DNA of 64,000 nt from Fidelibacterota bacterium (GTDB lineage: Bacteria; Fidelibacterota; Marinisomatia; Marinisomatales; S15-B10). The notes beneath the pieces were generated by a model. It searched no databases and was not told the DNA's origin. It was given only the letters and a program-made list of their open reading frames with translations. The stretch covers positions 41,873 to 105,872 of the forward strand of contig JBHIAI010000002.1 in the NCBI GenBank assembly GCA_046861655.1. The letters run 5' to 3'. Shown one piece after another: positions 1 through 15,479 of the stretch (the stretch's first letter is position 1; each line of letters begins with the position of its first letter). Made by a program: the position numbers and the translations under genes.

Positions 1-387
1 GGTGCCACCCTTGAGGTAACGGGGACTCTGGATCAGACCACAGGGGATTTGGTGGCCGAAAGGATCAAGGTATTTCAGGTCGTCCTTACGGGTCAGGTGA
101 ATTCGGCCGTTGTAAACAATGAATTTGAACTCACCGATATCACCATTCTGGAGGGTAATGTTGACGTGAGCACCCTGTCCGGTATGGTCAGGTTGACGCC
201 AGATACTGAAGTGGAAGGGGAAGAAATTCCGGTTGGGGTCCGGGTGACGGTGACCGGAAATGTGGAACCCTCCACGGGTACGTTTGTGGCTTCCAGGATC
301 GTGGTGATCGTCACAGAAAGAGAGCTTATCGTGGACATGGAAGATAATCAGGGCCGGAAACGGGAGCTCGTCATCAGATTTCAATAG
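1..387 (+). CDS. 5'-truncated exported protein with DUF5666-like OB-fold repeats
   Basis: Frame 1 is open from base 1 (GATLEVTGTLDQTTGDLVAERIKV...). It has the repeated V.V.G.......F/LVA.RI pattern typical of DUF5666, and its stop overlaps the next start. Confidence 0.55.
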   Translation, partial: GATLEVTGTLDQTTGDLVAERIKVFQVVLTGQVNSAVVNNEFELTDITILEGNVDVSTLSGMVRLTPDTEVEGEEIPVGVRVTVTGNVEPSTGTFVASRIVVIVTERELIVDMEDNQGRKRELVIRFQ

Positions 388-3179
388 TGGAGATTTCCGT
401 GGGATCATTTTTCGCCAATGGGGTTGCCAGAAGGGCAGGATGGATCGCGGCGTTCGTGATTTTCAGGACTCTTGGGGCCTTTCAGGCCGGGGCTATCACT
501 CACTATCCTGTCCCTCAGCATACAGCCGATAGACCCCTGGAGATTAAGGCTACAGTTTCCATGGCGACAGAGGTGGACAGGATGGATCTCTTCTACCGCC
601 GGGCGGACGAAGATGGATTCATTGAGATAGAAATGGATGTCGTCCCCGACGGATGGCAGGGTCAAATCCCCCTCGGTTATCTGACGGAGGAGGGGATCGA
701 GTACTATATATCGGCCTCCCTGGAGGATGGTACTGTAGTGACGTTCCCTGCGCAGGATCCCGTGGGGAGTCCCCAAACAGTGAAGATTGTCATGCCTGAA
801 GCGTCTCAGCCGGAAATGGCGCGAAGAGAAACCATCGGTGAGGAAGCCATCCTCATTTTCAGTCCCGAGCCGGGATCCAGGGTGCCCACGGATGCCGTGC
901 TCGTTTCGGTATCCCTTTTCCATGTGGATTCGGTGGATGTTTCATCCGTACGGCTGGCAGTGGACGGTCAGGACGTGACGTCCCGGGCATCGGTTGGGAC
1001 TGACCTGGTTGTCTACGAACCCGTGTTGATGCCGCCGGGTTCTCACCGGGTACGTTTGACTGTGAAGACACTGGACGGTCGGGCCGTGGAGCCGAAATCG
1101 TGGTCATTCGACGTAACGGGCAAACTGGAGAAGGAAGTGGAGAGGGCTCTGACCTACGGGGGAAGGATCAACAGTGGGTATTCCCTGGATGCCATCGAGG
1201 GCCAGAGCCTGTCGATTGGGTTGACATCGGCTTCGGTGACCGGGAAGTGGCGGGGTTTAGACTTTAAGACCGATCTGAAGTTTACCACGGAGGAGGACCC
1301 CTTCAAGCAGCCCAGAAACCGGTACCAGTTCAAGGTGGATGCAGGACGGTATTTCAGTCTGAATCTGGGGGATTTCAACAGCAGGCTGTCGAGATTCACC
1401 CTGGATGGGAAGCGGGTCCGGGGTCTGGAGGCAAACCTGAAACTGGGTTGGGTGAATTTTCACCTGGTGAGAGGTGAGCTGGACCGTGTCATTCAGGGAC
1501 GCCTGGGGGTGAATCAATCCCTGTTTCTTGAGAGTGTTGAGGCGACACAGAATGAACAGGATTCCACGAAGACCGACATCATCTACCGGTTGAATCGAAA
1601 GGGCTTCACCTTTCGCAAGAACATCTCCGCCGCCCGGTTGAGCTTTGGAAAAGGGAGCCGGTTTCAACTGGGGTTTAACTGGCTTAAGGCCAAGGACGAC
1701 ATCGGTTCCGTTCAGCAGGCTCTCGATAAGGCTCTTATCGATGTGGACCGGGATTCTTCTGGTTCAATTCCCCTGGAGATCGCCGTAGGGCAGTACGAAT
1801 ACGGGGAATTGAGAAGTGAGATCGACAAGAGAGGAAACTACCGGCTGGTCCTGCCCGAAACAGATTGGGAGGGGGACGCTCCTCAGGATAATATCGTTCT
1901 GGGATCAGACATTCGCTTTTTCCTGGATCGAAAAAGGATAGGGTTTGAGGCCGGTTGGGCCTTCAGCATACTGAATAAGGACATCTGGGACGGTCCCTTC
2001 AGTCTCGCCGGCCTGGATACGCTCATGGACGATGAGCTGGATGGCAGAGCGGGCGATATTGACATCTCGGGTTTTCCTGATCCTTCCGAATATGAGGACA
2101 TTTTTGTTATCAATGAAAACATTGTGCCCCTTGTGCCCATAGACCCTGACTCCGCCCTGCTGGCGGATGATCCCCTGAAGGCGATCCTTAATATGCCTTC
2201 CCTCGCCTATTACCTTAAGGCTTCCGCCCGCTACCTTGGCAACCAGTTCAATTTCCAGTACATCAAGGTGGGGCCTGAATTCAATTCCCTGGGGAATCCC
2301 TACATTCAGGAGAATAACAGGGAATACTCCGTATCCGACCGGGTGGGGCTGTTTCGGAACAGATTCCTGGTACACGTAATCTACAAGCATCAAGACGATG
2401 ACATTCTGAGAACGGTGGAGAATGTGACCACCACCGAGACTTTCAGGACCAACCTGGGGCTCTACCCCGGGGGCGGCCTGCCCACCGTCACATTCAGTTT
2501 CCGCAATCAGGACAGGGATAACGGAAAAACCACGCTTGATACGGTGACTGTGGACACGGCAAACGGCAGAATCGACCTGGAGGACCTGCGGGACTTCACC
2601 CGGACTACCCACACCACCGTGGGCGTGAACCATCGCCTGGGGGCGTTGGGGATGGAGCACAATGTCTCGGTAAACTATGTTCAGCTTAAGCGTGCCGACC
2701 AGTATTACGAGGATGAGGACCGTCCCCTCCCACCCTTTTTCGAAGTGGTCGGCGGAGACAGTGTATTTGTCGATTCATCCTTCGTCTCTCCCAGTCTGAG
2801 TTCCCAGGTGACCAACGTAGCCCTGGTCACCGACTACCCCTTTGGCCTGAGAACCACCCTTACCGTGTCCATCAACAAAAGCACCTTCGGGGAAGAAGGT
2901 AGTGAGTTATACGATTACGGAGACCAGGACATCACGGGATTTACTCTTAAAGGGGACTATCGTATGTTGGACGGCCGCCTGGGACTTCGGGGTGGCGTGG
3001 AGATTACGAGTGGCTCGGGTATGGAGGAGTTTCGCCGTCTGGGGTTCGGAGCCGGATTCGGTTACAGAATCACCGATCTTCTCCGGTTCCGCTTTGACGG
3101 GAAACTCCGCTCCAAGAGCACCAACGGGGAGACAAAATCCAGCACCCTTCTTCGGGCCTCTTTGAATTATTCCTTCTAA
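387..3179 (+). CDS. Large outer-membrane beta-barrel protein with N-terminal Ig-like domains, function unknown
   Basis: 930 aa; signal-like N-terminus, beta-sandwich segments (LFYRR...IEYYISA), many amphipathic strands and a C-terminal ASLNYSF (BAM-type terminal Phe). Confidence 0.65.
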   Translation: MEISVGSFFANGVARRAGWIAAFVIFRTLGAFQAGAITHYPVPQHTADRPLEIKATVSMATEVDRMDLFYRRADEDGFIEIEMDVVPDGWQGQIPLGYLTEEGIEYYISASLEDGTVVTFPAQDPVGSPQTVKIVMPEASQPEMARRETIGEEAILIFSPEPGSRVPTDAVLVSVSLFHVDSVDVSSVRLAVDGQDVTSRASVGTDLVVYEPVLMPPGSHRVRLTVKTLDGRAVEPKSWSFDVTGKLEKEVERALTYGGRINSGYSLDAIEGQSLSIGLTSASVTGKWRGLDFKTDLKFTTEEDPFKQPRNRYQFKVDAGRYFSLNLGDFNSRLSRFTLDGKRVRGLEANLKLGWVNFHLVRGELDRVIQGRLGVNQSLFLESVEATQNEQDSTKTDIIYRLNRKGFTFRKNISAARLSFGKGSRFQLGFNWLKAKDDIGSVQQALDKALIDVDRDSSGSIPLEIAVGQYEYGELRSEIDKRGNYRLVLPETDWEGDAPQDNIVLGSDIRFFLDRKRIGFEAGWAFSILNKDIWDGPFSLAGLDTLMDDELDGRAGDIDISGFPDPSEYEDIFVINENIVPLVPIDPDSALLADDPLKAILNMPSLAYYLKASARYLGNQFNFQYIKVGPEFNSLGNPYIQENNREYSVSDRVGLFRNRFLVHVIYKHQDDDILRTVENVTTTETFRTNLGLYPGGGLPTVTFSFRNQDRDNGKTTLDTVTVDTANGRIDLEDLRDFTRTTHTTVGVNHRLGALGMEHNVSVNYVQLKRADQYYEDEDRPLPPFFEVVGGDSVFVDSSFVSPSLSSQVTNVALVTDYPFGLRTTLTVSINKSTFGEEGSELYDYGDQDITGFTLKGDYRMLDGRLGLRGGVEITSGSGMEEFRRLGFGAGFGYRITDLLRFRFDGKLRSKSTNGETKSSTLLRASLNYSF

Positions 3180-3405
3180 ACGTTAGACGTTCAACGTTAG
3201 GCGTCTTCCGCAGTACGGTCTACGCATTACGCCTGACGGCTCATTTCAAAATGATAATTGAAAATGGTAAATGCAGGAGTGAAGAAACCTGTGATATTGA
3301 ATGATTCTACATTTTGTACTTTCCATTTTGCATTCTTCATTGTTACGGTTCAGGTCCATCACGTCCTCAAATAATCCATAGTCAATTCTCTGTTTCTAAG
3401 CCGGC

Positions 3406-4338
3406 CTATCCCTCGAAAAGGAACAGGTCCGTATTGTCGCGGAAGGTGGAGTACAAAGCCTCCATGGAATCGATGACGAAGTAGCGATCCTGGATATCGC
3501 TGTAGTCAAACCGGGTAAGGACCACCTCCCCCACATCGAAGGGAAGGAACCTGGACCGGTTGGATTCGCCCGTGGCACAGGCGACCACGTTCATGACCTC
3601 ATCATACGACGAGATGATCCCTGACCCATAAATCTCATAATCAATGTTATTGGGGCTTTTCCGGATCTCATCGGTATGGTTCTGTTTTTTCATGACGCCG
3701 AATTCGTAGCTCCACCAGGCGAAATTTTGGAGGCGCTTCAGGTTGTGGGCAATCAGCTCGGGACCCATGCCCCGTTCATCGGTAATGAGTGCATAGCCCA
3801 GCTGGCCGATTTCCGCCAGAAAATCACCGTACTCCCTGTTGGTGAGAAAAGGAGAATGGCCCCGGATATCGTGAAAAATATCGGGTTCAGGCGTGTATTC
3901 GTCTGTGTTGCGAATGTCCTGTCCTGAGTATTTCTGCCGGAATCGCCCGGATTGACGAATGATGTCCGTAACGGGAAACTTCCGCTGACTGTTCAAGAGG
4001 AAGAAGAGATACTCATTGAGGAATCCGGCCACCGGTGTGAGCATCCAGCCGCTGGCCTGTTCCAGCACAGGAGTCAGGGTCTCGAAATTTGGCCATTCGT
4101 TCCTGGAGAGCCCCAGGGCTCTCAACCCCTGGAGGTATTCCTTCGATGCGTATTGATCAAGGGGATCCTCGAGACGATTGAACAGCCGTCGCCAGATCTC
4201 CCGTTCTTCATCACTGATAGCGCCGTAGTTCTGTTTTATGAGGTAGGGATCATTCTCCGTGAAAATCTTGATCCCTCCCACTGCGTGGGGTTTTACGTTC
4301 CTAAAAAGATGGTCGTATTTGGTGTGCACCTCCAGCAT
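3406..4338 (-). CDS. phhA: Biopterin-dependent aromatic amino acid hydroxylase (phenylalanine-4-hydroxylase-like)
   Basis: YTPEPDIFHDIRGHSPFL (two Fe-ligand His), WWSYEFG (Glu ligand), IYGSGIISS and YSDIQDRYFVIDS. Start placed at MLEVHT (4338); the ORF extends to 4359. Confidence 0.8.
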   Translation of the reverse strand: MLEVHTKYDHLFRNVKPHAVGGIKIFTENDPYLIKQNYGAISDEEREIWRRLFNRLEDPLDQYASKEYLQGLRALGLSRNEWPNFETLTPVLEQASGWMLTPVAGFLNEYLFFLLNSQRKFPVTDIIRQSGRFRQKYSGQDIRNTDEYTPEPDIFHDIRGHSPFLTNREYGDFLAEIGQLGYALITDERGMGPELIAHNLKRLQNFAWWSYEFGVMKKQNHTDEIRKSPNNIDYEIYGSGIISSYDEVMNVVACATGESNRSRFLPFDVGEVVLTRFDYSDIQDRYFVIDSMEALYSTFRDNTDLFLFEG

Positions 4339-4434
4339 GCACGGGAATTTACAACACAAATGATTTTTGTAAACCCCTTTATGGGGACCTTCCAGACGTC
4401 AGCTCCTGCCTCCGGCAGTGCAAAACCTTTTTTC

Positions 4435-4463
4435 TTGACATTTATTGGAAACGGGTTTACAAT
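4435..4463 (+). promoter_or_regulatory. sigma70-type promoter of the motor operon
   Basis: TTGACA (4435-4440), 17-bp spacer, TACAAT (4458-4463), about 55 bp upstream of the 4518 start. Confidence 0.75.
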
Positions 4464-4517
4464 TGTGGGAGCTCGATTGGTTTCCTAATCGTTTCGGGTT
4501 AAATCCGAGGTAATGGC

Positions 4518-5639
4518 GTGAATAAGTTTACTCAGTCTATCTGTACCTTTCTCGTAGTCTGCTCATTTGTCGCAACCGGGTATGCCGCTGACACGTACCG
4601 GATACAGGGGGTGATCCTCGACAGTGGTGGCGACAAGGTGGGCGGTGCACAGGTGGTTCTTTTAGACGCGGACGGTAACGAGGCAGACCAGACCTCCTCT
4701 TCAAAAGGCTTCCTGGGAAAAGGGAAGTTCGAGTTCGACGATCTCAATCCGGGCCGGTACACGGTGAAGGCGACGGCAGGGGAGGCAGGTTCGGCCTCCC
4801 TCGAAGTGGTGGTGGCCGAGGAAGACCGGGAAATTGAATTGACCCTGGCCCCTGTGGGGAAAGGTGAAGAAAACGGCGGTCAGGAAGAAGGTGAAAGAAT
4901 TCCCTCGGGGCGGGATGAATATGTCCTGAGCGAAATCAGTTTCGAACTGAAAAAACTAGGGGCTGAACTGGATCATCTTGGGAGCCAGATCAGGGATCTG
5001 CAAGCGAAGAGTGAGATGTGGACCAACCCCCTGTCCATCTACTCCAAGGAGATCATCCTGGAAAACGGCAGCACCGTTTTCGGGAAGGTCGTGTATCAAG
5101 ATGAAGATATTCTGAAAGTACAGACCCTGGTGGGAAATCTGGTTATCGACCGATCCCAGGTGGTTCGCATAGTGGAGAATGTTCAGGCGGAGGAAGAACC
5201 TGAATACGTTCCCGAGCAGATCCGGGAGACCTACAGTCCACCCCCCATGCCCAGGCTCGCCGAACCGAAGTACGTCGCCGTGACTCCTTCGGAGCGAATT
5301 CCCTCGGAGGTACGGGCGGCCAACGTGGTGCTGGTGGGTAACATTGCGGAGAATAAGGACAGGTCCGGAAACATCACCTTTCAGGGACAGCTCAAGAACC
5401 TTGGCGGCCGGCGGGCCGACTTTGTGAAGGTCAACTTTGTTTTCCGCAAGAACTGGAGCGGGGAGACCAAGACTCTCACCACCTTTGCCAAGGGATCTTA
5501 CCACACCTTTGATTCGGGCATTACCACCGACTCATCGTTGCTCCCCGGCGCCAGTGCCGCCTTCGAACTGGTGGTTCCTGCTGATTTTGGATCCTTCATC
5601 GGGTATTCCCCCACCATCGATTGGGAAGAGTACGAGTGA
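4518..5639 (+). CDS. Exported multidomain protein (carboxypeptidase-regulatory-like beta-sandwich, coiled coil, small SH3/Sm-like domain, C-terminal FxLYD-like Ig domain)
   Basis: Signal peptide ending GYA-A; IQGVILDSGG..VGGAQVVL...GKFEFDDLNPGRYTVKA; IILENGSTVFGKVV; FQGQLKNLGGRRADFVKVNFVF. Confidence 0.6.
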   Translation: MNKFTQSICTFLVVCSFVATGYAADTYRIQGVILDSGGDKVGGAQVVLLDADGNEADQTSSSKGFLGKGKFEFDDLNPGRYTVKATAGEAGSASLEVVVAEEDREIELTLAPVGKGEENGGQEEGERIPSGRDEYVLSEISFELKKLGAELDHLGSQIRDLQAKSEMWTNPLSIYSKEIILENGSTVFGKVVYQDEDILKVQTLVGNLVIDRSQVVRIVENVQAEEEPEYVPEQIRETYSPPPMPRLAEPKYVAVTPSERIPSEVRAANVVLVGNIAENKDRSGNITFQGQLKNLGGRRADFVKVNFVFRKNWSGETKTLTTFAKGSYHTFDSGITTDSSLLPGASAAFELVVPADFGSFIGYSPTIDWEEYE

Positions 5640-6535
5640 ACCGTCCGGTAGCGATTCCGTTGCTCTCAGGGGCTCTTCTTATTCTATGTACCTTGACCGG
5701 GGTACTAACGGGTCAGTCCTCGTCCGGATCTCCCGGGCCCTTGGGGGATGACATCTTCTTCCTGGACCTGGGCATCGTGATTGAACCGGGCACCGGCAAG
5801 GAAGAGGTTAACCGTCTGGTGAAGGCACCTCCGGAGAAGGTGAAATTCTTCCTGGACAAGGAACCCAGTGGTTCCGTCTACATGGCGTCAACCCGGGAGT
5901 TGCATGAGACGCTCGCCCGGATCAGCGACAGGATTGATGCCCTGGAGGAGTCCTTTCACCGGGAGATTACTGCTGTCCGGGTGGAGAATGGCGAGTTGCG
6001 GGAAATGGTGGCCGACCTCCTGGCCAGGGAACCCATTCTTCCCTCCCAACCTGCGGTGACCCCGGTTCCATCTTTGTCCACCCCACCCGTTTCCCGGGAG
6101 GAACAACCCGAACCGGAGGTGGAAGAAAAAGTCGTCGTTACCGCCCCTGCGGCGGACGGCTCTTTCAGCAAGATGAGATACATGAATGCCGTTTTCGCTT
6201 ACCAGAGGGAGGACTACCGGGTCGCCCTGGATCATTTTTCCCGGTTGTACCTGAAGGAGCAGGATCACACCACCAGAGGAAACGTGTTGTACTGGATTGC
6301 CGATTGCTACTATCAACTGGGAGATTACCGGAGAGCTCTCGACACCCTGGAGGAGATCAGATCCCTGGGCCGGTCGGACAAGCAGGATGACGCCCTGGTG
6401 TTGACCGGGCTGGCCTATCGCCAGATGGGTCGGGAAAACGAGGCCCTTGAGGCCTTTGATCATATCCTTCAGTACTATCCCGACAGCGAATACTTCAGGC
6501 TGGCCCGGATGGAGTTGCGGAAATCTCAGGAGTAG
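5636..6535 (+). CDS. CpoB/YbgF-like periplasmic coiled-coil + TPR protein
   Basis: Signal/TM segment, coiled coil (LARISDRIDALEE), Pro-rich linker, TPRs (NVLYWIADCYYQLGDY, DDALVLTGLAY, ILQYYPDSEY). The GTG start overlaps the upstream stop. Confidence 0.7.
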   Translation: MNRPVAIPLLSGALLILCTLTGVLTGQSSSGSPGPLGDDIFFLDLGIVIEPGTGKEEVNRLVKAPPEKVKFFLDKEPSGSVYMASTRELHETLARISDRIDALEESFHREITAVRVENGELREMVADLLAREPILPSQPAVTPVPSLSTPPVSREEQPEPEVEEKVVVTAPAADGSFSKMRYMNAVFAYQREDYRVALDHFSRLYLKEQDHTTRGNVLYWIADCYYQLGDYRRALDTLEEIRSLGRSDKQDDALVLTGLAYRQMGRENEALEAFDHILQYYPDSEYFRLARMELRKSQE

Positions 6536-6540
6536 TCCGT

Positions 6541-7908
6541 ATGGGTAAAACCCACAGATCCGGCGTGTTATTCCTGTTGATCTTGATGTCTGCGCCCCTG
6601 TTGGGCGTGACCCGGGTGGCGTTTACCCGTCCCGGACCCATGGTGAGAATTCCCATGACCCGCACCGTGCGGTCTCCCTATCTTTTCAGTGCAGGTTTCG
6701 GATCGGAGATTCACAATTTTTCCCCTTTCAATGTAGCCAAGGGTGTTTATTTCACCATGGACATATCCGAGAGATTCACCCTGGGATTCTCTTCAGGTCA
6801 GGGGGCGGACACCACCGCTCTGGAGAACATTCTGGAGTCCACCTATGCCCCCCCTGTTGAGTTCGGATTTCATTTCCAGCAGCGCGTTTACACCCGGGGA
6901 GACGTTTCTTTTAGTCTGGGCGTTCACGATGTGGTCTTTGAGAACGCAGATGACGGCTTAAGTCTCGACCCCAAGCAACTGTCTTTTTTCGGGATTATTG
7001 GTAGTGAGAAGTCCTTCGGTGATTATGATCTGCACACGTTTATGGGGTTTGGCACGGGAGGATTTGCCCAGACCCTCGCCACGGGTCAACCCGGAACCGC
7101 CGGGGAAGACACCGCCGGAACCCGGACCGGCGTATTCGCCGGGTTCTTGTTGAACACACCGTTCCTGCCCAAATGGGGTGGACTCGATTTTGTGGGTGAA
7201 TTCGACGGCTCAGGCATCAATGTGGGACTCCGCATCCCCCTTACCTCGGATTATCGCCTGAGTCTAGGATTCACCCACATAGAAAATTTGCCCGCTTTTT
7301 CCGAAGAACCTTATGGTCCCGATCACCCGGGTCTTGCGGTGGGGCTCGACATGTCGGTTCCGAGGGGACCGGTGGTCAGGGAGGTACCGGGTCTGCCCCG
7401 GCCCGGCGAGAGGGGCCCCGCCCCCGTTCCTGAAGCCGCCGTTCGTGACACAATCCTCTTGGCGGCCGATCTGGCAATGGCCAGACTCCGGGATTCTTTG
7501 CGGGTGGAAAAACACTACGTACGGAACCTGGCGACTCAGGTGGCCCGATTGGAGCAGAAAAGCCTCACCCTTGAAGATTCGGTGCGGGCGTTGAGGCTTG
7601 ATCGGGCGGTGAGTCAAAAGAACATCAACCTGGCCATGCAGCACCTGTCCCTTTCCCAGCGTTACGCCTTTGCGGGAGATTACCGGGCGGCTCTTCAGGA
7701 GGTGGAGACTGCCCTGGATTTGAACCCTAATCTGGCACTGGCTTACGCCCGGCGAGGGGCCATATACTATAAGTTGGGAGATATTCAACGGGCGACCATC
7801 AACTGGAATCTGGCTCTCCAGATGGATCCGGAATACGATGACGTGAGAAACATCTTGAAGGCTCTTCACGAGAACCGTTTGAAGGCCATCAGTTTCAACA
7901 AGGAGTAA
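6541..7908 (+). CDS. Predicted outer-membrane beta-barrel (YjbH-like) fused to coiled coil and C-terminal TPRs
   Basis: Signal peptide; beta-strand region (GVFAGFLL..., GEFDGSGINVGLRIPLTSDYRLSLGF); Pro linker; heptad coiled coil; TPR (ALDLNPNLALAYARRGAIYYKLG). Confidence 0.6.
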   Translation: MGKTHRSGVLFLLILMSAPLLGVTRVAFTRPGPMVRIPMTRTVRSPYLFSAGFGSEIHNFSPFNVAKGVYFTMDISERFTLGFSSGQGADTTALENILESTYAPPVEFGFHFQQRVYTRGDVSFSLGVHDVVFENADDGLSLDPKQLSFFGIIGSEKSFGDYDLHTFMGFGTGGFAQTLATGQPGTAGEDTAGTRTGVFAGFLLNTPFLPKWGGLDFVGEFDGSGINVGLRIPLTSDYRLSLGFTHIENLPAFSEEPYGPDHPGLAVGLDMSVPRGPVVREVPGLPRPGERGPAPVPEAAVRDTILLAADLAMARLRDSLRVEKHYVRNLATQVARLEQKSLTLEDSVRALRLDRAVSQKNINLAMQHLSLSQRYAFAGDYRAALQEVETALDLNPNLALAYARRGAIYYKLGDIQRATINWNLALQMDPEYDDVRNILKALHENRLKAISFNKE

Positions 7909-7916
7909 CGTTCCGT

Positions 7917-8702
7917 ATGGACATAGCCACGCTGGTAGGCATCGTGATCGGTTTAGGTGCTATTGGAGGGGGAATCTTCGTGGCCGCTGCTGCCGCCGGT
8001 GCGGGAGCTGAAGGATTCGTTTCCCTGCCGAGTTTCCTGATCGTGTTCGGAGGCATGGTGGCCTCAGTCTCGGTGGCCTTTCCCCTGCCGGAAGTAATGA
8101 AACTGGGGGCGGCCATGGGGGCGGTCTTCAAGGGAGGTTTGATCAGGCTGGGCGAGCTGGTGGATGATGCGGTGGAACTGGCAGGAGTGGCAAGGAAGGG
8201 TGCAGCCGAACTGGAAAAGGGTGTGGGAGACATCCGAAATCCTTTCTTCAGGGATGGCGTCCAGATGGTGGTGGACGGCTATTCCGAAGAGGAATTGGTT
8301 GAGATTCTGGAAACCCGTATCAGCTACCGGGAAGTCCGGGAACGGTCCCAGGCAAGTCTGTTTCAGACCATGGGGACCATGGCGCCAGCGTGGGGGATGA
8401 TTGGGACGCTCATCGGACTGGTTATCATGCTCATGGGATTCGGTGGAGGGGGAGGAACAGAAGCTCTCGGTTCAGGCATGTCCGCCGCCCTGATTACCAC
8501 CTTCTACGGAGCTGTGTTTGCCAATCTGTTCTTTCTCCCCATGGCGGCCAAGCTCAACTCGCGAATCGCTCACACCAGCACCATGCAGGCCATGCTGGTG
8601 GAGGCCGCCCGTTTGATTCATCAGAAAAAACACCCCCTTATCGTCCGGGAGAGACTCAACTCCTTCATTCCTCCCAAGGAATGGAAAAGGGAAGGGGAGT
8701 AA
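7917..8702 (+). CDS. motA: Stator A subunit, MotA/PomA family
   Basis: MDIATLVGIVIG; PSFLIVFGG; ARKGAAELE; NPFFRDGVQMVVDG; APAWGMIGTLIGLV; ALITTFYGAVFANLFFLPMAAKL. Confidence 0.93.
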   Translation: MDIATLVGIVIGLGAIGGGIFVAAAAAGAGAEGFVSLPSFLIVFGGMVASVSVAFPLPEVMKLGAAMGAVFKGGLIRLGELVDDAVELAGVARKGAAELEKGVGDIRNPFFRDGVQMVVDGYSEEELVEILETRISYREVRERSQASLFQTMGTMAPAWGMIGTLIGLVIMLMGFGGGGGTEALGSGMSAALITTFYGAVFANLFFLPMAAKLNSRIAHTSTMQAMLVEAARLIHQKKHPLIVRERLNSFIPPKEWKREGE

Positions 8703-8705
8703 CCT

Positions 8706-9458
8706 GTGCCGAGAAAGCCTCAACCTCCTCCTCCTGAACCGGGTCTCCCCAATTGGTTTGCCACTTTTGCCGATATGATGACGCTTCTCCTGGCCTTTTT
8801 CGTTCTTCTGGCCGCCATTTCCACCATCGATCCCGTCAAACTTCAGGCCATGGCCGATTCCATGAAAAAATCAGTGGGAAAGAAAATAGAGATGGAGGGA
8901 GCCATGAGCCTGGCCGATATCGAGAAGGCGGTTAAGGTGATGGTGTCGCAGGAACAGATGGAGGAAGCTGTGGAAGTGACCACCAGCACCAAGGGTGTCA
9001 CCATCGGCATTTCATCGGACATCAGTTTCGAATCGGGTTCAGCGGACCTGAAACCCGGGATCATGCCCATTCTGGAAAAGATTGTTCCCACGATCGAGAA
9101 TTCGTATTTCCAGGTGGCTGTTGAGGGCCATACTGACAACGTGCCCATTTCGGACAATATCCGGGTGCGGTTTCCCTCTAACTGGGAACTGTCCGGCGCC
9201 CGGGCGGCTTCGGTGGTCCGGGAATTGATCGATATGGGCGTAGAACCCACACGTCTGCAGTCGGTGGGATATGCCGAATACATTCCGAGGGATCGGCCCA
9301 CGGACAGGCTCATCACGGATGAGCTTATCCTCGAGCTGAATGCAACCCCCGATCTTCAGGCCCGTAATCGCCGGGTGGAGATCACCTTTCTGGCTCCCCG
9401 GGGGGGGCCGGTGGGTAGCCACAGGGAGGAGTCGGAGCCGGAGGAGGGGGGAGAGTAA
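8706..9458 (+). CDS. motB: Stator B subunit, MotB/PomB family with OmpA-like peptidoglycan-binding domain
   Basis: WFATFADMMTLLLAFFVLL (conserved Asp), plug helix, FESGSADL, VEGHTDN, NWELSGARA, NRRVEI. Confidence 0.93.
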   Translation: MPRKPQPPPPEPGLPNWFATFADMMTLLLAFFVLLAAISTIDPVKLQAMADSMKKSVGKKIEMEGAMSLADIEKAVKVMVSQEQMEEAVEVTTSTKGVTIGISSDISFESGSADLKPGIMPILEKIVPTIENSYFQVAVEGHTDNVPISDNIRVRFPSNWELSGARAASVVRELIDMGVEPTRLQSVGYAEYIPRDRPTDRLITDELILELNATPDLQARNRRVEITFLAPRGGPVGSHREESEPEEGGE

Positions 9459-9485
9459 GACCTGGAGCCTAAACAAGGAGAGGTC

Positions 9486-11063
9486 ATGAAACACAGGTTG
9501 AGGGGTATCCTTGGCGGGGGAGCCGTAGTTGCCGTTTTGGCTGTCCTCGCTGTGGGGCAGGAGTCCACGTTTCTGGCTCAGAAGCTCATGCTGGAAAACG
9601 ATTTAAGGAAGCGTATTACGGGAGCTCTTGAAAAAATCCTGGACGACCACCGTTACGTCCTGGATGTGACCGTGGATTTGAAGTTCACGCCCGCCGTTCG
9701 CGAGGAAGTGACATTCGCACCCGAGGAGGTCCCGGCCCAAGTAAAACCAGCTCTCAGAGAAAAGATGGGTGCTCGGGAACAACCAGAAGAGGTGGCGGGC
9801 CGGAAGAAGTCCCGGGTGACGGGACTTCCCATTCCGGGATTTGATTTTCAGGTGGAAGAGGAACCTGCGCCAGGGCTGGAGGAACCGTCTGCTGTTGAAA
9901 CCGAAAAGGAGGATGAATCCGTCCAGGAGGGACCGGCCAGAAAAGGGGCCAGAGTGATCCGCCAGTCCTATACGGACATCAGTACATCCATGCCGGTGAT
10001 CAGGAAGATGGAAATCAGCTGCATTCTCCCCGAGGGGTCCTCTCCTGAGCTCATCGAGAACGTTCGACAGATTATCATGGTGGCTTCCCATTTCGACCGG
10101 AGTCGCGGGGATGTCCTGAGTGTTATGACGGCGTCGTTCAAGGAGAGAAAGGACGAGAGGACGGCGGAGGCCATCATCTTAAGAAGTATTGCGGAAAAAA
10201 TTGATCAGCTTGAGGAGAGACAGGCGGAGACCGACGCTCAGGTAGTCGAGGACTGGCGCAGGGAGTTGGAACAGTGGAAACAGGAGGAATCCCGGCGCCA
10301 GGAGGAAGAACGGTCCGTCTGGCGAACCGAACTCGAAAGGCTGGAGAATGACCGCCTTCGTCGGGAATTTGAACGGGAAAAAAGAGCCATTCTGGAGCGT
10401 GATTCCCTGGAACTGGCAGCCTTAACTCAGGAAATCGATGAGTTAAGAGCCATGCTGACCACCGCCGATCTGACGCCTCAAGAGCAACAGACGGCTCAGG
10501 ATCAGGTGGCGATCAAGGAGAGGAAGCGGGCTCAGATCGACTCTGTGATTGATGAGAAACTGGCTTTTCTTGAGGAGACCCGCCAGGAAATGAGGGAACT
10601 GGACAGGGCAGGAGTGAGCAATCTCCCCATTTATCTGATGAGTGCTATTTCGCTTCTGGCCGTAGCTGCCCTGGCGGCGGTGATCATTTTCAACGGCCGG
10701 AGTCGTCCCCGTTATATGGTACCCCCTCCATGGCTCATGAGGCCGCCCAGCAAAAAAAAAGTGACTAAGGAGAAAAAAGAGGATGAGGACAAGGGCGAGG
10801 GACCCAAGGCGGCGCCGCCTCCCCCACCTCCGCCCACGCCCCCGGAACCGGAAGAAGATCCCAGTGTCCTCCAGTCAGAAATCAAATCTATGCGGCAGTC
10901 CATTGTGTCCATGAGCGTGGGACAGCCCGAGACGGCCACCGATATCGTTAAAGAGTGGTTGGAAGAAGAAGCGCCCGCACCTCCCGAGGAAGCGCCGGCG
11001 GCCGTAACTCCCCCTTCCCCCGAAGAAAAGGATGAGGGGAAAAAGAAAAAGAAGAAAAAGTAG
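9486..11063 (+). CDS. FliF-like ring protein (RBM3/beta-collar + coiled coil + TM + FliG-binding C-terminus)
   Basis: LENDLRKRITGALEKILDDHRYVLDVTVDLKF and IRKMEISCIL...IENVRQIIMVASHFDRSRGDVLSVMTASF resemble the two halves of FliF RBM3. TM LPIYLMSAISLLAVAALAAVIIF. Tail QPETATDIVKEWLEEE. Confidence 0.75.
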   Translation: MKHRLRGILGGGAVVAVLAVLAVGQESTFLAQKLMLENDLRKRITGALEKILDDHRYVLDVTVDLKFTPAVREEVTFAPEEVPAQVKPALREKMGAREQPEEVAGRKKSRVTGLPIPGFDFQVEEEPAPGLEEPSAVETEKEDESVQEGPARKGARVIRQSYTDISTSMPVIRKMEISCILPEGSSPELIENVRQIIMVASHFDRSRGDVLSVMTASFKERKDERTAEAIILRSIAEKIDQLEERQAETDAQVVEDWRRELEQWKQEESRRQEEERSVWRTELERLENDRLRREFEREKRAILERDSLELAALTQEIDELRAMLTTADLTPQEQQTAQDQVAIKERKRAQIDSVIDEKLAFLEETRQEMRELDRAGVSNLPIYLMSAISLLAVAALAAVIIFNGRSRPRYMVPPPWLMRPPSKKKVTKEKKEDEDKGEGPKAAPPPPPPPTPPEPEEDPSVLQSEIKSMRQSIVSMSVGQPETATDIVKEWLEEEAPAPPEEAPAAVTPPSPEEKDEGKKKKKKK

Positions 11064-11072
11064 AGTCAACGC

Positions 11073-12002
11073 ATGATTACCGATTACAATCGTTTGTCCG
11101 GCCTGGATAAGGTGGCCATCCTTTTCTCTGTACTGGGAGAAGGTCTGGCGGTGAAAGTTGTGAAGGGACTGGAAGAGGCGGACCTGCGGCGGATCCGGGC
11201 TCGCGTCCGTGAAATGGAGGCAGTGTCTACGTCGGTAAAGAAGAAGGTCGTGGACCAATTCTACCTGGCGTTCGTATCCAGGAAACTGGAGGATGAGACC
11301 GGCGGAGACACCAAACGGCCCTTTGCCTTCTTGGAAAACTTAGCCGACGAACAGCTGGGAGCCCTCCTGGAAGTGGAAGAACCGAGAATCATTGCCATGG
11401 CTCTGGCTCAGGTGCCTACCGACAGGCAGGTTTTTGTGATGGCCCGCCTGACACCGGAAACGAAGGGGCAGGTGCTTATGGAAATGGGCAACCTGGGGAA
11501 TGTTCCCCTGGAGGCCGTGGTCACTGTGGCTACGGATCTGGAGAAAAAATCCCACTTCCTTCCCCGTGGTGTGGACTTCTCCCGGGGAGGGGGTAAGAAC
11601 GTGGCTGATATTCTTGAGAAACTTTCCCCTGAGGAAGGAGAAAAGTTTCTGGAAGCCATCGCCCGGGAGTCTCCTGACCTGGCCAAAGAGATCAAGAGAT
11701 ATCACCTTACCTTCGACGACGTGTTCAGATTTCCCGACAGCCTCTTGAGGGACCTCATGAATTCGGTGGAGCTGGATACAGTGGCCTTGGCCATGAAGGG
11801 TCAATCCGAGGAGATTGTTGACCGGGTTATCAGTAACCTTCCCCAGAAGAAACAGGCCATGTACGAGCCGGTGGAACGAGCGGTTCCCAAAAGGGAGGTG
11901 GATAACGCCAGAAAAGCCATTGTGGATGCTGCCCGGCAGATGGAAAAGGACGGACGCATTAATCTGGAAGATATTCTGGGTGGCAGCGAAATGGTGGAAT
12001 AG
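11073..12002 (+). CDS. fliG: FliG-like rotor protein (shortened)
   Basis: LSGLDKVAILFSVLG (N domain), RPFAFL, EEPRIIAMAL (EHPQ position), GGGKNVADIL, PDLAKEIK..HLTFDD (MFxF position), VALAMKG, final helix IVDAARQMEKDGRI. Confidence 0.88.
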   Translation: MITDYNRLSGLDKVAILFSVLGEGLAVKVVKGLEEADLRRIRARVREMEAVSTSVKKKVVDQFYLAFVSRKLEDETGGDTKRPFAFLENLADEQLGALLEVEEPRIIAMALAQVPTDRQVFVMARLTPETKGQVLMEMGNLGNVPLEAVVTVATDLEKKSHFLPRGVDFSRGGGKNVADILEKLSPEEGEKFLEAIARESPDLAKEIKRYHLTFDDVFRFPDSLLRDLMNSVELDTVALAMKGQSEEIVDRVISNLPQKKQAMYEPVERAVPKREVDNARKAIVDAARQMEKDGRINLEDILGGSEMVE

Positions 12003-12842
12003 GTGTCTTTGTTCCGTCCTCGGTCAAGAAGCCTTCCCTGGGAAAGGACGGGAAGGCTTTTTCATATCTTTCCTGTGAGATTGGGAGCCCTGGGACTGAT
12101 GGCAGTGGTGTCCACGGGTGTCTCCGGAAAACCTTCCCCCGTTACTCCGGGGGGAGAGGCCGGTTGGGAACGATCCCTCGCAGCCTCGTTTTCCACCCAG
12201 GGCGGAAACACCAATCTGTCCAGTTACGCCCTGGCCTTTACGGTGGATTATACGGGGGATCTCCGTGTAGCAGGCGTGGATTTCAACGACAGTGAGTTCC
12301 ACGCGTTCGTCCGTCATAAACGGGGGAAACTGGACAGGTCTTTATATGAAGACGATGGGAGTGCGTCCTTGCTGTTTGACATCATGGCCCATGGCAAATT
12401 CTCCCCTTTTTTCCTTTCTTACTGGGCCTACGATTCCACCACGGGCCTCGATGAACGAATTCAGCTCGGAGCTGGAGGCAAGTACACCGTCGCCGGGGGA
12501 TTCTCCCTGAGCCTTGCCTATCTGTTTGAGGTGGAGGGCTATAAGGGTGAGTCCAGAACCCGGCAGTATCGATTGTCGTTTCGACCCAAGTACAAGAGGA
12601 CCTTCTCCAGCGGTGTGTCCCTTAACACCCTGGTATTCATCCAGCCCCTGGTCCTGGATCCCGGCAGATTTCTCATTGACAGCCATGTGAGTGTGACCGT
12701 TCCCACCCCGGTGAAGATACTGGCAGATGACAAGAAACTCGAGGTGACTCTGAGGTGGAGGGAACAATTCAACTCCCGTCCCCCCGGTTCGGTCCAGAAG
12801 CGGGACAGCGATCTTGACCTTGGCCTGATGATTTCGTTTTAG
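12003..12842 (+). CDS. DUF481-like outer-membrane beta-barrel protein
   Basis: S/T-x-GNT motif (FSTQGGNTN), GLDERIQLGAGGKY, FNSRPPGSVQKRD..L.LGLMISF with terminal Phe. The true start may be slightly downstream. Confidence 0.65.
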   Translation: MSLFRPRSRSLPWERTGRLFHIFPVRLGALGLMAVVSTGVSGKPSPVTPGGEAGWERSLAASFSTQGGNTNLSSYALAFTVDYTGDLRVAGVDFNDSEFHAFVRHKRGKLDRSLYEDDGSASLLFDIMAHGKFSPFFLSYWAYDSTTGLDERIQLGAGGKYTVAGGFSLSLAYLFEVEGYKGESRTRQYRLSFRPKYKRTFSSGVSLNTLVFIQPLVLDPGRFLIDSHVSVTVPTPVKILADDKKLEVTLRWREQFNSRPPGSVQKRDSDLDLGLMISF

Positions 12843-12860
12843 ATCACGGGGTAGAGTAGT

Positions 12861-14279
12861 ATGGAAAAGGAAATCCACGAGTTGAATCTGGAGGGAACCA
12901 CCTTCCGGACCATCATTGAACCGTTCAGAATCAAGTCTGTGGAACCCATCCGGATCACCACCCGGGATGAGAGGGAAACGATTCTTCAACAGGCCTTCTA
13001 CAATGTGTTTCTCATCCGGTCCAGGGACGTTATCATCGATCTTCTCACCGACAGCGGTACCAACGCCATGAGTTCGGACCAGTGGAGCGGAATAATGCGA
13101 GGCGATGAGACCTACGCCGGTAGTGAGAGCTATGGCCGTTTTGAGAATACGGTCAAGGATATCTTCGGATTCAAGCATGTCATTCCGACCCACCAGGGAA
13201 GAGCCGCCGAGAGGATTCTGTTTACGGTCATGTGCCGGCCGGGAGATGTGGTTCCCAACAACACCCACTTCGACACCACCCGGGCCAACGTAGAATTCCG
13301 GGGAGCGGTGGCGAAAGATCTCCCCATTGAAGAAGGGCGAGATCCCCAGAATCCCCATCCGTTCAAGGGGAACATGGACCTGGCAAAACTGGAGGCACTG
13401 ATCACCCGGGAGGGGAAGGAAAAGATTCCCCTTTGCATGGTGACGATCACCAACAACTCCGGGGGAGGCCAGCCGGTGTCCATGGAGAACCTACGGGCCA
13501 CGAAGACCCTGGTATCCCGGTATGGGATTCCCCTCTACCTGGACGCATGCCGGTTCGCTGAGAATGCTTATTTGATTAAGTTAAGGGAAAAAGGGTACGA
13601 GAATAAGCCGGTCAGGGAGATCGTGGCGGAAATGATGAGCTACGCCGACGGGTGCACCATGAGTGCCAAAAAGGACGGCCTGGCCAACATCGGAGGATTT
13701 CTCTGCACCAACGATGATCTTCTGGCCCGGCAGGAAAGGGACCTTCTGATTCTCACTGAAGGCTTTCCCACCTACGGGGGCATGGCGGGAAGGGACCTGG
13801 AGGCCATCGCCATCGGTCTGGAAGAGGCGATTCACGAAGATTATCTCATCTACCGGATTGCCGAAACCCAGTACTTGGGGAAACACCTGGAGGAAATAGG
13901 GTTTCCCATTGTGCAACCCCCGGGAGGTCACGCCGTATACGTGGATGCTAACGCCACGTTACCCCATATGGATCCTCTGGAATACCCCGGTCAGGCTCTG
14001 ACGGCTGAACTTTACCTTGCAGGGGGGATCAGGGCGGTGGAAATTGGGTCCGTCATGTTCGGGAAGGAAGACCCGGAGACGGGAAAGGAACAACCGGCGG
14101 CCATGGAGTTGGTTCGACTTGCCATTCCCCGGCGGGTGTACACGCAGAGTCATATCGATTATGTCATTGAGGTGTGCAAGAGAGTCTGGAAACGCCGGGA
14201 ATCTCTCAAAGGGTTTCGAATCACTGAACAGGCCCCGTTTCTTCGTCACTTTACCGCTAAGTTTGAACCCCTTGATTAG
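12861..14279 (+). CDS. tnaA: Tryptophanase (beta-eliminating lyase; tyrosine phenol-lyase not excluded)
   Basis: EPFRIKSVEPI, IDLLTDSGT, THQGRAAE, TITNNSGGGQPVS, MSAKKDG (PLP Lys), EGFPTYGG, RLAIPRRVYT, LRHFTA. Confidence 0.85.
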   Translation: MEKEIHELNLEGTTFRTIIEPFRIKSVEPIRITTRDERETILQQAFYNVFLIRSRDVIIDLLTDSGTNAMSSDQWSGIMRGDETYAGSESYGRFENTVKDIFGFKHVIPTHQGRAAERILFTVMCRPGDVVPNNTHFDTTRANVEFRGAVAKDLPIEEGRDPQNPHPFKGNMDLAKLEALITREGKEKIPLCMVTITNNSGGGQPVSMENLRATKTLVSRYGIPLYLDACRFAENAYLIKLREKGYENKPVREIVAEMMSYADGCTMSAKKDGLANIGGFLCTNDDLLARQERDLLILTEGFPTYGGMAGRDLEAIAIGLEEAIHEDYLIYRIAETQYLGKHLEEIGFPIVQPPGGHAVYVDANATLPHMDPLEYPGQALTAELYLAGGIRAVEIGSVMFGKEDPETGKEQPAAMELVRLAIPRRVYTQSHIDYVIEVCKRVWKRRESLKGFRITEQAPFLRHFTAKFEPLD

Positions 14280-14285
14280 CCGGCG

Positions 14286-15470
14286 ATGCCAGGTACCAGA
14301 AAAATCCATCATCTCCTGATCGCGGGTGCCTTGATTCTGACCGCGTGCACCGAGTCCCCGAGAAAGTTTCACGACCGGGCCTATGTTGCCGACACCCACA
14401 ATGATGTCCTTCTGCGGGTCATGAGGGGGGAGGACATTGCCGTGAGAACTTCATCGGGGCATTCCGACGTTCCGAGGTTGGAAGAGGGGGGCGTCGACAT
14501 GCAGGTGTTTTCGGTCTGGGTGGACCCGGCCACCTATGGGTCTGGCAGCTCTTTTCAAAGGGCGAACGAGATGATCGATTCTCTGGTCAGCCTTGCGGAA
14601 AGAATTCCCCAGCGGCTGGAGATTGCCCGCTCCTACGACGATCTGGAACGGCTCGAGCGGGAAGGAAAACTGGCGGCTGTCATTGGCGTTGAAGGGGGAC
14701 ACGCCATCGAAAACAGCCTGGAAAAGCTAAAGGTTCTTCACCAGCGGGGAATGCGCTATCTTACCGTCACCTGGAATAACTCCCTGGATTGGGCCAGCTC
14801 AGCCAAGGATGAGACAAAGGGAGATATGGGACCCTTCGCCGGACTCAATAAGTTCGGCAGGGAGGTGATCCGTTCCTGCAATGACCTGGGGGTGATGGTG
14901 GATGTGTCACACGCGGGGGAACAGACCTTCTGGGATATCATAGGGAGCACCACCCGTCCTGTTATCGCCTCCCACTCTTCCGTGTATGCCATCTGTCCCC
15001 ATTTTCGCAACCTCAAAGATGACCAGCTTCAGGCCATCAAGGATAACGGCGGTGTGGTGTTTGTTAATTTTTTCCCGGGTTATCTGGACAGCACCTTCGA
15101 AGGCCGGTACCTCCAGGTGGAAAAAGCCCATCAGGAGGAACTGGATTCCCTGGCGGGGATCTATTCACGGGACTCTGAGGATTTCTGGTATGGACGGATT
15201 CAGATCCTTCGGGATGATCTTTCCACCGTGGCACCCCCCGTGGACCTCCTCATCGATCACATTGACTATATCGCAAACTTGATCGGTGTTGACCATGTTG
15301 GACTGGGATCGGATTTTGATGGGGTCTCGGTCCTGCCCCGGGGAATGGAAGACGCCACCCGGGTTCCCCTGATTACGGAAAAACTCCTCCAACGGGGTTA
15401 CTCCAGGAGGGATGTAAGGAAGATCCTGGGGGAGAATTTCAAGCGTGTTTTCCGGGAGACCGTAGGGTGA
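14286..15470 (+). CDS. Membrane dipeptidase (peptidase M19), probable lipoprotein
   Basis: LTAC lipobox; DTHND, GVEGGH, VDVSH, ASHS, RNL.D, GLGSDFDG, KILGENF.RV. Confidence 0.9.
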   Translation: MPGTRKIHHLLIAGALILTACTESPRKFHDRAYVADTHNDVLLRVMRGEDIAVRTSSGHSDVPRLEEGGVDMQVFSVWVDPATYGSGSSFQRANEMIDSLVSLAERIPQRLEIARSYDDLERLEREGKLAAVIGVEGGHAIENSLEKLKVLHQRGMRYLTVTWNNSLDWASSAKDETKGDMGPFAGLNKFGREVIRSCNDLGVMVDVSHAGEQTFWDIIGSTTRPVIASHSSVYAICPHFRNLKDDQLQAIKDNGGVVFVNFFPGYLDSTFEGRYLQVEKAHQEELDSLAGIYSRDSEDFWYGRIQILRDDLSTVAPPVDLLIDHIDYIANLIGVDHVGLGSDFDGVSVLPRGMEDATRVPLITEKLLQRGYSRRDVRKILGENFKRVFRETVG

Positions 15471-15479
15471 TCCGGGGAG

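Follow-up and report, generated by a model that had tools for sequence, protein, structure and literature searches.

The stretch of DNA analysed here, which we call the window, comprises 64,000 nt of contig JBHIAI010000002.1 (assembly GCA_046861655.1) from a member of the Fidelibacterota; all positions are counted from its start. It carries a block of eight co-oriented genes on the plus strand, in which a MotAB-type stator pair and FliF- and FliG-like rotor proteins are encoded together with envelope proteins. The genes follow a sigma-70-type promoter, TTGACA-17-TACAAT (4435..4463, +), which matches the consensus at 11 of 12 positions and is the top of nine promoter-like sites in 3300-15600 (shuffled sequences give a mean of 5.1 sites). 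Gene 1 (4518..5639; 373 amino acids, aa) encodes an exported Ig-like protein recognised by Pfam (CarboxypepD_reg), gene 2 (5621..6535; 304 aa) a CpoB/YbgF- and BamD-like protein with tetratricopeptide repeats (TPR; Pfam TPR families), and gene 3 (6541..7908; 455 aa) a protein with an outer-membrane-type barrel, a helix and a TPR domain, based on Pfam TPR matches and an AlphaFold2 model. These are followed by the motA-type stator A subunit (gene 4, 7917..8702; 261 aa; MotA_ExbB, E 3.9e-28), the motB-type B subunit (gene 5, 8706..9458; 250 aa; MotB_plug 2.5e-18, OmpA 3.7e-14), the FliF-like rotor ring protein (gene 6, 9486..11063; 525 aa; YscJ_FliF_C 1.5e-6), the FliG-like rotor protein with N, M and C domains (gene 7, 11073..12002; 309 aa; FliG_N/M/C) and a DUF481-type outer-membrane barrel (gene 8, 12003..12842; 279 aa; 1.8e-5, 25.3 bits vs a cut-off of 21.1). 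Successive spacings are -19 (an overlap), 5, 8, 3, 27, 9 and 0 bp, and the true start of gene 2 possibly lies slightly downstream of the overlap; the first-pass annotation had described just such a co-oriented run of eight genes behind this promoter, and this is confirmed.

The FliG-like protein exceeds the Pfam cut-offs for all three FliG domains (N 60.7, M 53.2 and C 89.7 bits vs 25, 25 and 23.3; E 2.3e-16, 3.6e-14 and 1.8e-25) and aligns with Thermotoga maritima FliG (PDB 1lkv) at 1.1e-21, but it falls below the fliG equivalog TIGR00207 (115.4 vs 226.7 bits). In the torque-helix region, as placed by alignment to 1lkv, the charged residues K242, K259, K260, E265, E268 and K273 are shared by all 21 module-type FliGs compared. 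In the region of the FliM-binding motif, T. maritima FliG has EHPQ and the module protein EEPR, a difference that fits the absence of FliM described below.

The two stator proteins keep their working residues as well. The closest solved relatives of MotA are flagellar: MotA 9lu9 (1.8e-40), 6ysf/8ucs, and PomA. Position 112 of its cytoplasmic loop, which aligns with that of solved flagellar MotA, is Arg or Lys in 20 of 20 sequences (18 R, 2 K), and D120 is present in all 20. Given their eight-residue spacing and the alignment to solved MotA, we infer that R112 and D120 are the counterparts of R90 and E98 of E. coli MotA, whose partner residues in FliG have been named (PMC12505986; PMC7564593). 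MotB consists of a transmembrane helix with Asp23, a plug and an OmpA-like peptidoglycan-binding domain; D23 is invariant in 21 of 21 proteins of systems such as this one, with separate FliF-like and FliG genes (split systems), and in 12 of 12 proteins of the fused systems treated below. The pair thus has the plug, ion-binding Asp, OmpA-like domain and charged rotor-facing loop of a MotAB-type stator. MotA nonetheless scores below the flagellar equivalogs (highest score MotP, 185.4 vs 394; nearest cut-off PRK09109, 146.9 vs 237 bits). Public annotations of these genes read 'motility protein A' or 'chemotaxis protein MotA'.

The third element of the rotor-stator set, the FliF-like protein, differs from its flagellar namesake in several domains. 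Pfam recognises YscJ_FliF_C alone (residues 48-218; 29.1 bits vs a cut-off of 23.8) and not the YscJ_FliF N-domain, and the score against the fliF equivalog TIGR00206 is 27.8 vs 129.75 bits. From an alignment of 16 orthologues and a model of the monomer with a mean pLDDT of 67.9, the protein would start with a hydrophobic segment (signal or anchor). The Gln after this segment is invariant and is preceded in all 16 by a small residue at -1, possibly marking a signal-peptidase site. A single RBM3-type ring-building domain (25-220) follows, split by a disordered insert of ~80 residues with an invariant LPIPGF motif. Two helices (224-325 and 331-374) are then modelled as a periplasmic segment of ~150 residues that leads to a transmembrane helix (380-403), and on the cytoplasmic side a Pro-rich linker precedes two conserved helices (459-494) that form a tail of the FliG-binding type. 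The C-terminus, an invariant Gly plus 5-10 Lys, is found in all 16 aligned orthologues (window 11022-11060). One TAG stop occurs, in one orthologue, among the FliF-like orthologues listed.

Structure comparison supports the assignment of the ring-building domain, as 18 of 18 Foldseek matches in the PDB at E<=1e-3 are FliF RBM3/S-ring structures. In profile searches, the sole match among solved structures is Vibrio FliF (E 0.0013), aligned over RBM3 (270-454). The end of the FliF C-terminal tail binds the N-domain of FliG in flagella, and the conserved tail aligns, collinearly but weakly, with the last 27 residues (552-578 of 580) of Vibrio FliF; a search of solved structures with the 51-residue tail by itself gave nothing meaningful. 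RBM1 and RBM2, which in flagellar FliF surround the export gate, were not found in the FliF-like protein by Pfam or by a search for the N-domain family. Because the LPIPGF motif lies in a disordered loop and resembles a TPR ligand, we predicted a complex of FliF-like residues 25-235 with the helix/TPR part of gene 3 (300-455), which received a score of 0.01 (mark 0.32). In one related locus (L033, family f4), the FliF-like protein has 617 aa (586-625 across that family) compared with 525 here, and MotB 293 compared with 250 aa; a longer periplasmic stalk may thus go along with a longer MotB linker.

The three genes upstream of motA encode envelope proteins. The product of gene 1 consists of a signal peptide, an Ig-like domain, a coiled coil, a small beta domain, a conserved Pro-rich linker and a very conserved C-terminal beta domain (mean column identity of the alignment, 65%); its CarboxypepD_reg match has E 4.2e-10. 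Gene 2 encodes an N-terminal anchor or signal, a coiled coil, a Pro-rich linker and a TPR domain. This layout of coiled coil and TPR is indeed like that of CpoB, to which the protein had been compared in the first-pass annotation, but the matches behind the label fall below their cut-offs (tol_pal_ybgF 46.4 vs 90.1, CpoB 20.4 vs 383 bits), as do those to BamD and to FlcA (21.7 bits). Its only paralogue in the genome (E 1.8e-18; contig C183, L086:1994-2818, +) comes immediately after genes for a PBP2-type transpeptidase and RodA, a hint at a role of this TPR family in cell-wall synthesis. Gene 3 was described from the start as barrel, coiled coil and TPR, and the AlphaFold2 model (mean pLDDT 62.3; barrel blocks mostly 55-70) fits this: a signal peptide would be followed by an outer-membrane-type barrel of ~14 strands (~49-272), an 82-residue helix (297-378) and a C-terminal TPR domain (381-454). 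Foldseek matches the barrel to the outer-membrane barrels OmpG, FapF and KdgM, with TMt values of up to 0.70.

The block is not peculiar to this genome. All related loci are from Fidelibacterota (also known as Marinimicrobia or SAR406); by tblastn, genes 1-7 are collinear in 15 of 18 of them, gene 1 included, and the remaining three are contigs cut upstream in which the downstream genes follow in order. Identities across these loci are 70-94% for MotA, 60-86% for FliG and 41-80% for the FliF-like protein. The eighth gene does not share this conservation: DUF481 follows FliG in only three of the 18 loci, while in most the lyase that lies downstream here follows FliG directly. DUF481 is thus not core, and is either a lineage-specific accessory or a mere neighbour; the expectation that the block would be conserved in relatives holds for genes 1-7, phylum-wide and with their order kept. 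Of 401 genomes sampled from the phylum, 254 have FliF-like orthologues (138 of the 190 that are of high quality; 94 of 114 genera), a count that includes weak matches (E 1e-5 to 1e-20) in distant classes. We checked five of the weak-match genomes: all five hold a FliG-type gene, adjoining the FliF-like match in two of them. The barrel-TPR protein of gene 3 has orthologues at E<=1e-20 in 265 of 401 genomes (138/190 and 95/114, respectively); family by family the tallies of the two proteins are nearly identical, and neither was found in any of 37 genomes of one genus with ~1-Mb genomes. Ratios of nonsynonymous to synonymous substitution rates (dN/dS) against the closest relative lie between 0.035 and 0.21 for all eight genes (MotA 0.035, gene 1 0.11, gene 2 and DUF481 0.21 each), with dS at about 0.7-1.1. 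All module genes are under purifying selection.

The genome was also searched for the other parts of a flagellum. Its assembly (2.06 Mb in 198 contigs) is 92.8% complete with 0.9% contamination. Whole-genome profile searches for seven flagellar and chemotaxis families gave no match in this assembly for FHIPEP/FlhA and FliP (the type III export gate), Flg_bb_rod (the rod/hook N-terminal motif), Flagellin_N, FliMN_C (the FliM/FliN C-ring switch), YscJ_FliF (the FliF N-domain) or MCPsignal. Each of these searches found its family in control genomes, with FlhA and FliP positive in 4 of 14. The module gene is the only one over the FliG_C cut-off in the genome, next to one sub-threshold match in a 511-residue frame, and none of 12 genomes from its family has an FlhA over the cut-off. 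The view that the module is not part of a flagellum is therefore upheld: no export, rod, hook, filament or C-ring family was found in the genome as assembled, and the block is conserved in relatives. Within the window, too, no flagellar or chemotaxis family was found beyond the block among 12 open reading frames and 30 of the 38 frames of at least 110 aa beyond 15.4 kb, as had been noted before. The genome does hold a second stator pair on contig C192 (L084:3263-5582, -), a MotA of 271 aa and a MotB with plug and OmpA domain of 237 aa that are 34% and 31% identical to those of the module and are followed by a 199-aa DUF4352/Ig-like protein; this pair lies between dtd/dnaE and an arginine-deiminase-like gene, in a genome without flagellar genes or a second FliG. 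Similar extra MotAB pairs are found in relatives (G190 C8, G203 C180, G228 C109).

Some Fidelibacterota are flagellated, as FlhA is over cut-off in 80 of 401 genomes, and in some relatives the module exists beside a complete flagellar set. Four of five flagellated genomes examined (G190, G203, G228 and G178) encode FliG twice: by a canonical gene (FliG_C 134-144 bits, 337-367 aa), which shares a contig with FlhA in three of the four, and by a gene of the module type (FliG_C 61-74 bits), which adjoins a FliF-like gene. The two are 21-24% identical. In all four, the motB of the module is likewise distinct from a flagellar motB that lies near flhA, and in G190 the seven-gene module is complete and has the same flanking genes as in the window.

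The gene trees point in the same direction. In a FliG tree of 134 rows (IQ-TREE quick search under a site-heterogeneous model, unrooted, sampled from the query's best 150 of 5049 matches), 75 canonical rows are split from the 59 others at 99% support in the SH-like approximate likelihood-ratio test. The canonical side takes in the four flagellar FliGs of Fidelibacterota and two full-length FliF-FliG fusions; the other side consists of 25 module-type rows (98) and 34 long RBM3-FliG proteins (95). In a MotA tree of 35 rows (careful search, unrooted, with no named outside references), the module forms a clade (100/99), the flagellar and other MotAs of the phylum another (96/92), and the fused-type MotAs a third group. 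A search for MotA homologues returned, among the 120 listed, only orthologues at least 70% identical. On these trees neither FliG nor MotA of the module groups within a sampled flagellar clade, and the sequences argue that the module is a paralogous system beside the flagellum and no leftover of one. The separation from flagellar homologues that the first-pass annotation had asked phylogenies to look for is thus seen in both proteins. Its further proposal, that flagellar parts had been repurposed, is not shown, since unrooted trees give no direction of descent; nor, given such trees and a FliG sample of the best 150 of 5049 matches, is it established that the module lineage is sister to flagellar FliG.

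The closest relatives of the module FliG are natural RBM3-TM-FliG fusion proteins (TM, transmembrane helix) from other phyla. They begin with a signal or anchor and an RBM3-like domain, which has an LPGLP insert and carries RGD in its last strand; a transmembrane helix then leads to FliG. Like the FliF-like protein, they are without the YscJ_FliF N-domain. In profile-profile comparison, their RBM part matches the split FliF-like family at 96.6% over 52 columns. A metagenome scan with a five-sequence alignment of one fused sub-clade yielded 42 loci, so that the gene context of the fused type given here is that of this sub-clade. The fused gene is present in 36 of the 42; MotA and a plug/OmpA MotB adjoin it in 25 of 25 loci with at least 1.6 kb downstream, and the other 11 end within 1.2 kb. 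A TPR lipoprotein, to which the TPR domain of gene 3 is homologous, lies upstream in 34 loci, and a further upstream protein with an outer-membrane-barrel-type C-terminus in 31; all five genes are present in 20 of 42 loci, flanked by housekeeping genes. The fused-type barrel protein was considered as a homologue of gene 3 or gene 1, but hhalign probabilities were below 1% for both, so that it and the module barrel are analogous at most; it matches FlgO weakly (E 0.009). Atlas clusters of the fused proteins are mostly from Pseudomonadota, Balneolota, Bdellovibrionota, Elusimicrobiota, Bacteroidota and Thermodesulfobacteriota, labels that rest on few members with records and serve as a lead rather than a range.

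In this fused sub-clade (loci L037-L077), residues of the rotor-stator interface are changed on both sides: MotA R112 is replaced by A, S or other residues and D120 by S, while in FliG K242 becomes C, K260 L and E265 K. These changes could be interface co-variation. In one of these loci (L077:12453-14279), MoxR AAA+ and DUF58 genes (a Bat-type operon) follow MotB, and fusA stands in place of the upstream barrel gene. Within the Fidelibacterota, a genome of another order (G051:C8:34256-34549) has a FliG_C match inside a 534-aa frame in addition to a 307-aa FliG-type gene; the 534-aa frame may be a fused-type protein within the phylum.

Around the module, the co-oriented run extends past gene 8 into a beta-eliminating lyase (12861-14279, gap 18) and an M19 dipeptidase (14286-15470, gap 6). 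A biopterin-dependent aromatic amino-acid hydroxylase is divergent upstream (3406-4359, -). The lyase is found next to the module in 11 of 18 related loci, and the hydroxylase in L003, L008 and G190. Farther upstream (387-3179, +) lies a gene for a 930-aa protein with only a sub-threshold match to the Ig domain Big_7; the closest relative also encodes this protein (L003, 77% identical). Elsewhere the window consists of housekeeping genes, e.g. for purine synthesis and pyruvate phosphate dikinase. The stretch is present as DNA in three sequencing runs, of one study labelled hydrothermal vent metagenome and one of them possibly the source; among the runs found, none that contains it is an RNA run.

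We suggest that the block encodes a self-contained, non-flagellar, ion-driven rotor-stator machine of the cell envelope, a reading to which we assign a probability of about 0.6. A dedicated MotAB, an RBM3 protein with its tail and a FliG with an intact torque helix are co-encoded across a phylum and under strong purifying selection, and are fused or adjacent in other phyla, for which a working non-flagellar rotor-stator pair is the simplest account. Gene content, conservation and the absence of flagellar families bear out the original description as a stator plus rotor module with envelope proteins of its own. In such a machine, stators of the MotA5B2 type would be anchored on peptidoglycan via the OmpA-like domain of MotB and would conduct ions past its invariant aspartate, thereby turning a cytoplasmic ring of FliG that would be held on an RBM3-built membrane ring through the conserved C-terminal tail of the FliF-like protein. 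With no FliM/FliN switch and no chemotaxis genes, the rotor would probably be unidirectional and free of chemotaxis control. In Fidelibacterota, the RBM3 ring is predicted to sit at the end of the periplasmic helical stalk of ~150 residues, and the products of genes 1-3 may form a periplasmic, outer-membrane-anchored assembly around stalk and ring. This assembly would either receive the mechanical output or hold the stators in position, a task of TPR proteins in elaborate flagellar motors. Torque may thus be passed to an outer-membrane partner, although the TPR and barrel proteins could equally well be a stator scaffold as an output element; our guess is that rotation drives something at the surface or outer membrane, for instance moving on particles or maintaining the envelope.

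Several observations weigh against this reading. All module proteins compared with NCBI equivalogs of fliG, fliF and motA fall below the cut-offs, so that function is not transferable by family membership. The FliM-binding motif region of FliG is altered, and its middle domain is without a known partner here. A wide ring on 150-residue stalks that pass through the peptidoglycan layer is hard to square with free rotation. The canonical charges are not kept in the fused sub-clade, so that the electrostatic model fails for the wider family as it stands. The count of 254 of 401 genomes for the FliF-like protein is in part one of weak matches, five of whose genomes were checked, and both trees have their limits, the FliG tree as a quick search on a sample biased to the query's best matches and the MotA tree as a small one without outside references. 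Finally, one flagellated genome (G234, 86% complete) has FlhA, yet only a module-type FliG was found in it.

A more far-reaching version, which we put forward tentatively and consider rather less probable than the reading above, would make the window's block the split-gene member of a family of rotary motors without export that is widespread but undescribed, composed of an RBM3 ring, FliG, dedicated MotAB, a TPR protein and an outer-membrane barrel, with ring protein and FliG separate throughout Fidelibacterota and fused in other phyla. Its FliG lineage would be sister to all sampled flagellar FliG and not nested among them, and the family would represent an independent ancient use of the rotor-stator pair or a surviving relative of a pre-flagellar rotor, with a function in the envelope or at the surface, such as movement on particles.

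The MotAB pair might also work without rotation. The FliF-like protein and FliG could form a static or conformationally cycling platform for which MotAB is an energiser driven by the proton-motive force, serving outer-membrane tethering, coordination of peptidoglycan and outer membrane, or division, in the manner of Tol-Pal/CpoB or ExbBD-TonB. We regard such a force transducer as unlikely, even though it would give a ready place to the outer-membrane barrel and TPR proteins of the operon, to the resemblance of gene 2 to YbgF/CpoB (46 bits) and its sole paralogue behind PBP2 and RodA, and to a long periplasmic helix that recalls spans of the TolA/TonB type. The stator is of the MotAB type with plug and OmpA domain and not of the TolQR/ExbBD type, the split system keeps without exception the charges with which MotA and FliG would face each other, the RBM3 fold is one that builds rings, and Pfam finds no TolA-, TolB- or Pal-like gene in the block.

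The RBM domain and the barrel raise the question of a trans-envelope export conduit, in which RBM ring, TPR proteins and outer-membrane barrel would form a channel for polymer or protein, with energy or gating provided by MotAB and FliG. RBM rings are known to scaffold type III secretion systems and sporulation rings, FapF and PelBC secretion barrels are among the top Foldseek matches of gene 3, and a TPR domain joined to a barrel is the layout of synthase-dependent exopolysaccharide exporters. Here, however, the domain order of gene 3 is reversed relative to PgaA, BcsC and PelB, its barrel model is of low confidence (pLDDT 55-70), and neither the conserved block nor the fused-type loci with their housekeeping flanks include a synthase, glycosyltransferase, ATPase or substrate gene; we consider the conduit distinctly improbable.

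It is very improbable indeed that the genes belong to a real flagellum after all, either with the remaining genes in the unassembled ~7% of a genome in 198 contigs or as an alternative rotor/stator set, as might occur in a phylum with FlhA in 80 of 401 genomes. For this, seven independent families would have to be missing together from the assembly; FlhA is over cut-off in none of the 12 genomes from its family, those relatives that are flagellated carry a canonical FliG and MotAB of their own near FlhA, and the FliF-like protein is without the RBM1/RBM2 that hold the export gate. A functionless, decaying relic of a lost flagellum is less credible still: flagellar loss is frequent and rotor proteins without filament proteins are reported in 11% of non-motile species (PMC12199754), but this idea is contradicted by the selection on all eight genes and by a gene order and content kept across classes of the phylum, and it sits badly with dedicated non-flagellar partners, a deep separate clade and coexistence with intact flagella.

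Textbooks present the interface of MotAB and FliG as the torque generator, and both FliG and the protein of the MS-ring count as specific to flagella. Here, a rotor-stator pair that appears functional by all the sequence criteria given above lacks an export apparatus and an axial structure, and it is kept across one of the most abundant deep-ocean phyla, with fused relatives in many others. If our reading is correct, it provides a concrete, testable object for how flagellar motor and secretion system came together, adds a new envelope machine to bacterial cell biology, and would alter the meaning given to 'motility protein A' and 'FliG' wherever such annotations stand in genomes without a flagellum. 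We found no description of the module in a literature search to which subscription journals were largely closed. A 2025 stator survey places all plug+OmpA MotAB in one flagellar clade (PMC12505986), and a 2025 survey of motility notes rotor proteins without filaments and, in its accessible text, leaves their purpose as a question (PMC12199754). Fidelibacter multiformis (IA91) has been described as non-motile, with such genes unmentioned in the accessible part of that paper (PMC11652737), and a transcriptome paper on Leptospira lists a 'FliG C-terminal domain-containing' paralogue that is left unstudied in the part available (PMC13066512).

Among the closest known systems is the core of the flagellar motor, with which the module shares a MotAB with plug, Asp and OmpA anchor, a FliG with N, M and C domains and a charged torque helix, and an RBM3 domain with a FliG-binding-type tail. 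It differs in that its proteins fall below the equivalog cut-offs and form separate clades, in a genome that has no matches for the families searched of export gate, rod, hook, filament, FliM/FliN and chemotaxis, and no ATPase complex. Compared with flagellar FliF, its ring protein is without RBM1 and RBM2, has a disordered insert at the position of the beta-collar and has gained the periplasmic helix of ~150 residues. Covalent linkage of FliF and FliG is compatible with ring formation, as in engineered fusions in Vibrio and Salmonella (PDB 8z4d/8z4g; PMC10941966), and natural full-length flagellar fusions are also found (P0061, P0120); the nearest relatives of the module FliG, too, are fusions, of an RBM3-TM part with FliG. 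Unlike the flagellar fusions, the non-flagellar ones are encoded in barrel-TPR-rotor-MotA-MotB units among housekeeping genes, and in the window the two proteins are separate genes.

Periplasmic scaffolds for stators are found in elaborate flagellar motors, including the T- and H-ring proteins MotX/MotY and FlgO/P/T of Vibrio, PflA/PflB of Campylobacter and the spirochaete collar protein FlcA. The module is similar in that TPR-type periplasmic and outer-membrane-associated proteins, thought to position stators in those motors, are encoded with MotAB-type stators; the matches of gene 2 to FlcA (21.7 bits) and of the fused-type barrel protein to FlgO are not at any cut-off, and the scaffold-like proteins of the module accompany a rotor without an axial structure. 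With Tol-Pal/CpoB and ExbBD-TonB it shares a 5:2-type motor, driven by the proton-motive force and encoded with periplasm-spanning and outer-membrane proteins, but its stator is MotAB-type, it has a FliG/FliF rotor, and no TolA-, TolB-, Pal- or TonB-like gene is present in the block. Zorya (ZorAB) is another case of MotAB-like proteins outside a flagellum, and the module MotB matches ZorB models. A role in anti-phage defence was considered and rejected, as PADLOC gave ZorB-type matches to MotB only and none to the other seven proteins; unlike Zorya, the module has no match to ZorA, ZorC or ZorD and occupies a conserved chromosomal position across the phylum, not a defence island.

In its proposed function, the module is also comparable to GldLM of Bacteroidota and AglRQS-Glt of Myxococcus, which are non-flagellar, ion-driven motors that pass force over the periplasm to outer-membrane or surface parts; Glt includes a TPR lipoprotein (GltE) and outer-membrane barrels. 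The NCBIfam models for GldL/GldM and Agl/Glt, searched with the module proteins and not with the rest of the genome, gave no match except GltE at 21.4 vs 225 bits. Those motors work without FliG or FliF, whereas the machine proposed here would turn a rotor built from both.

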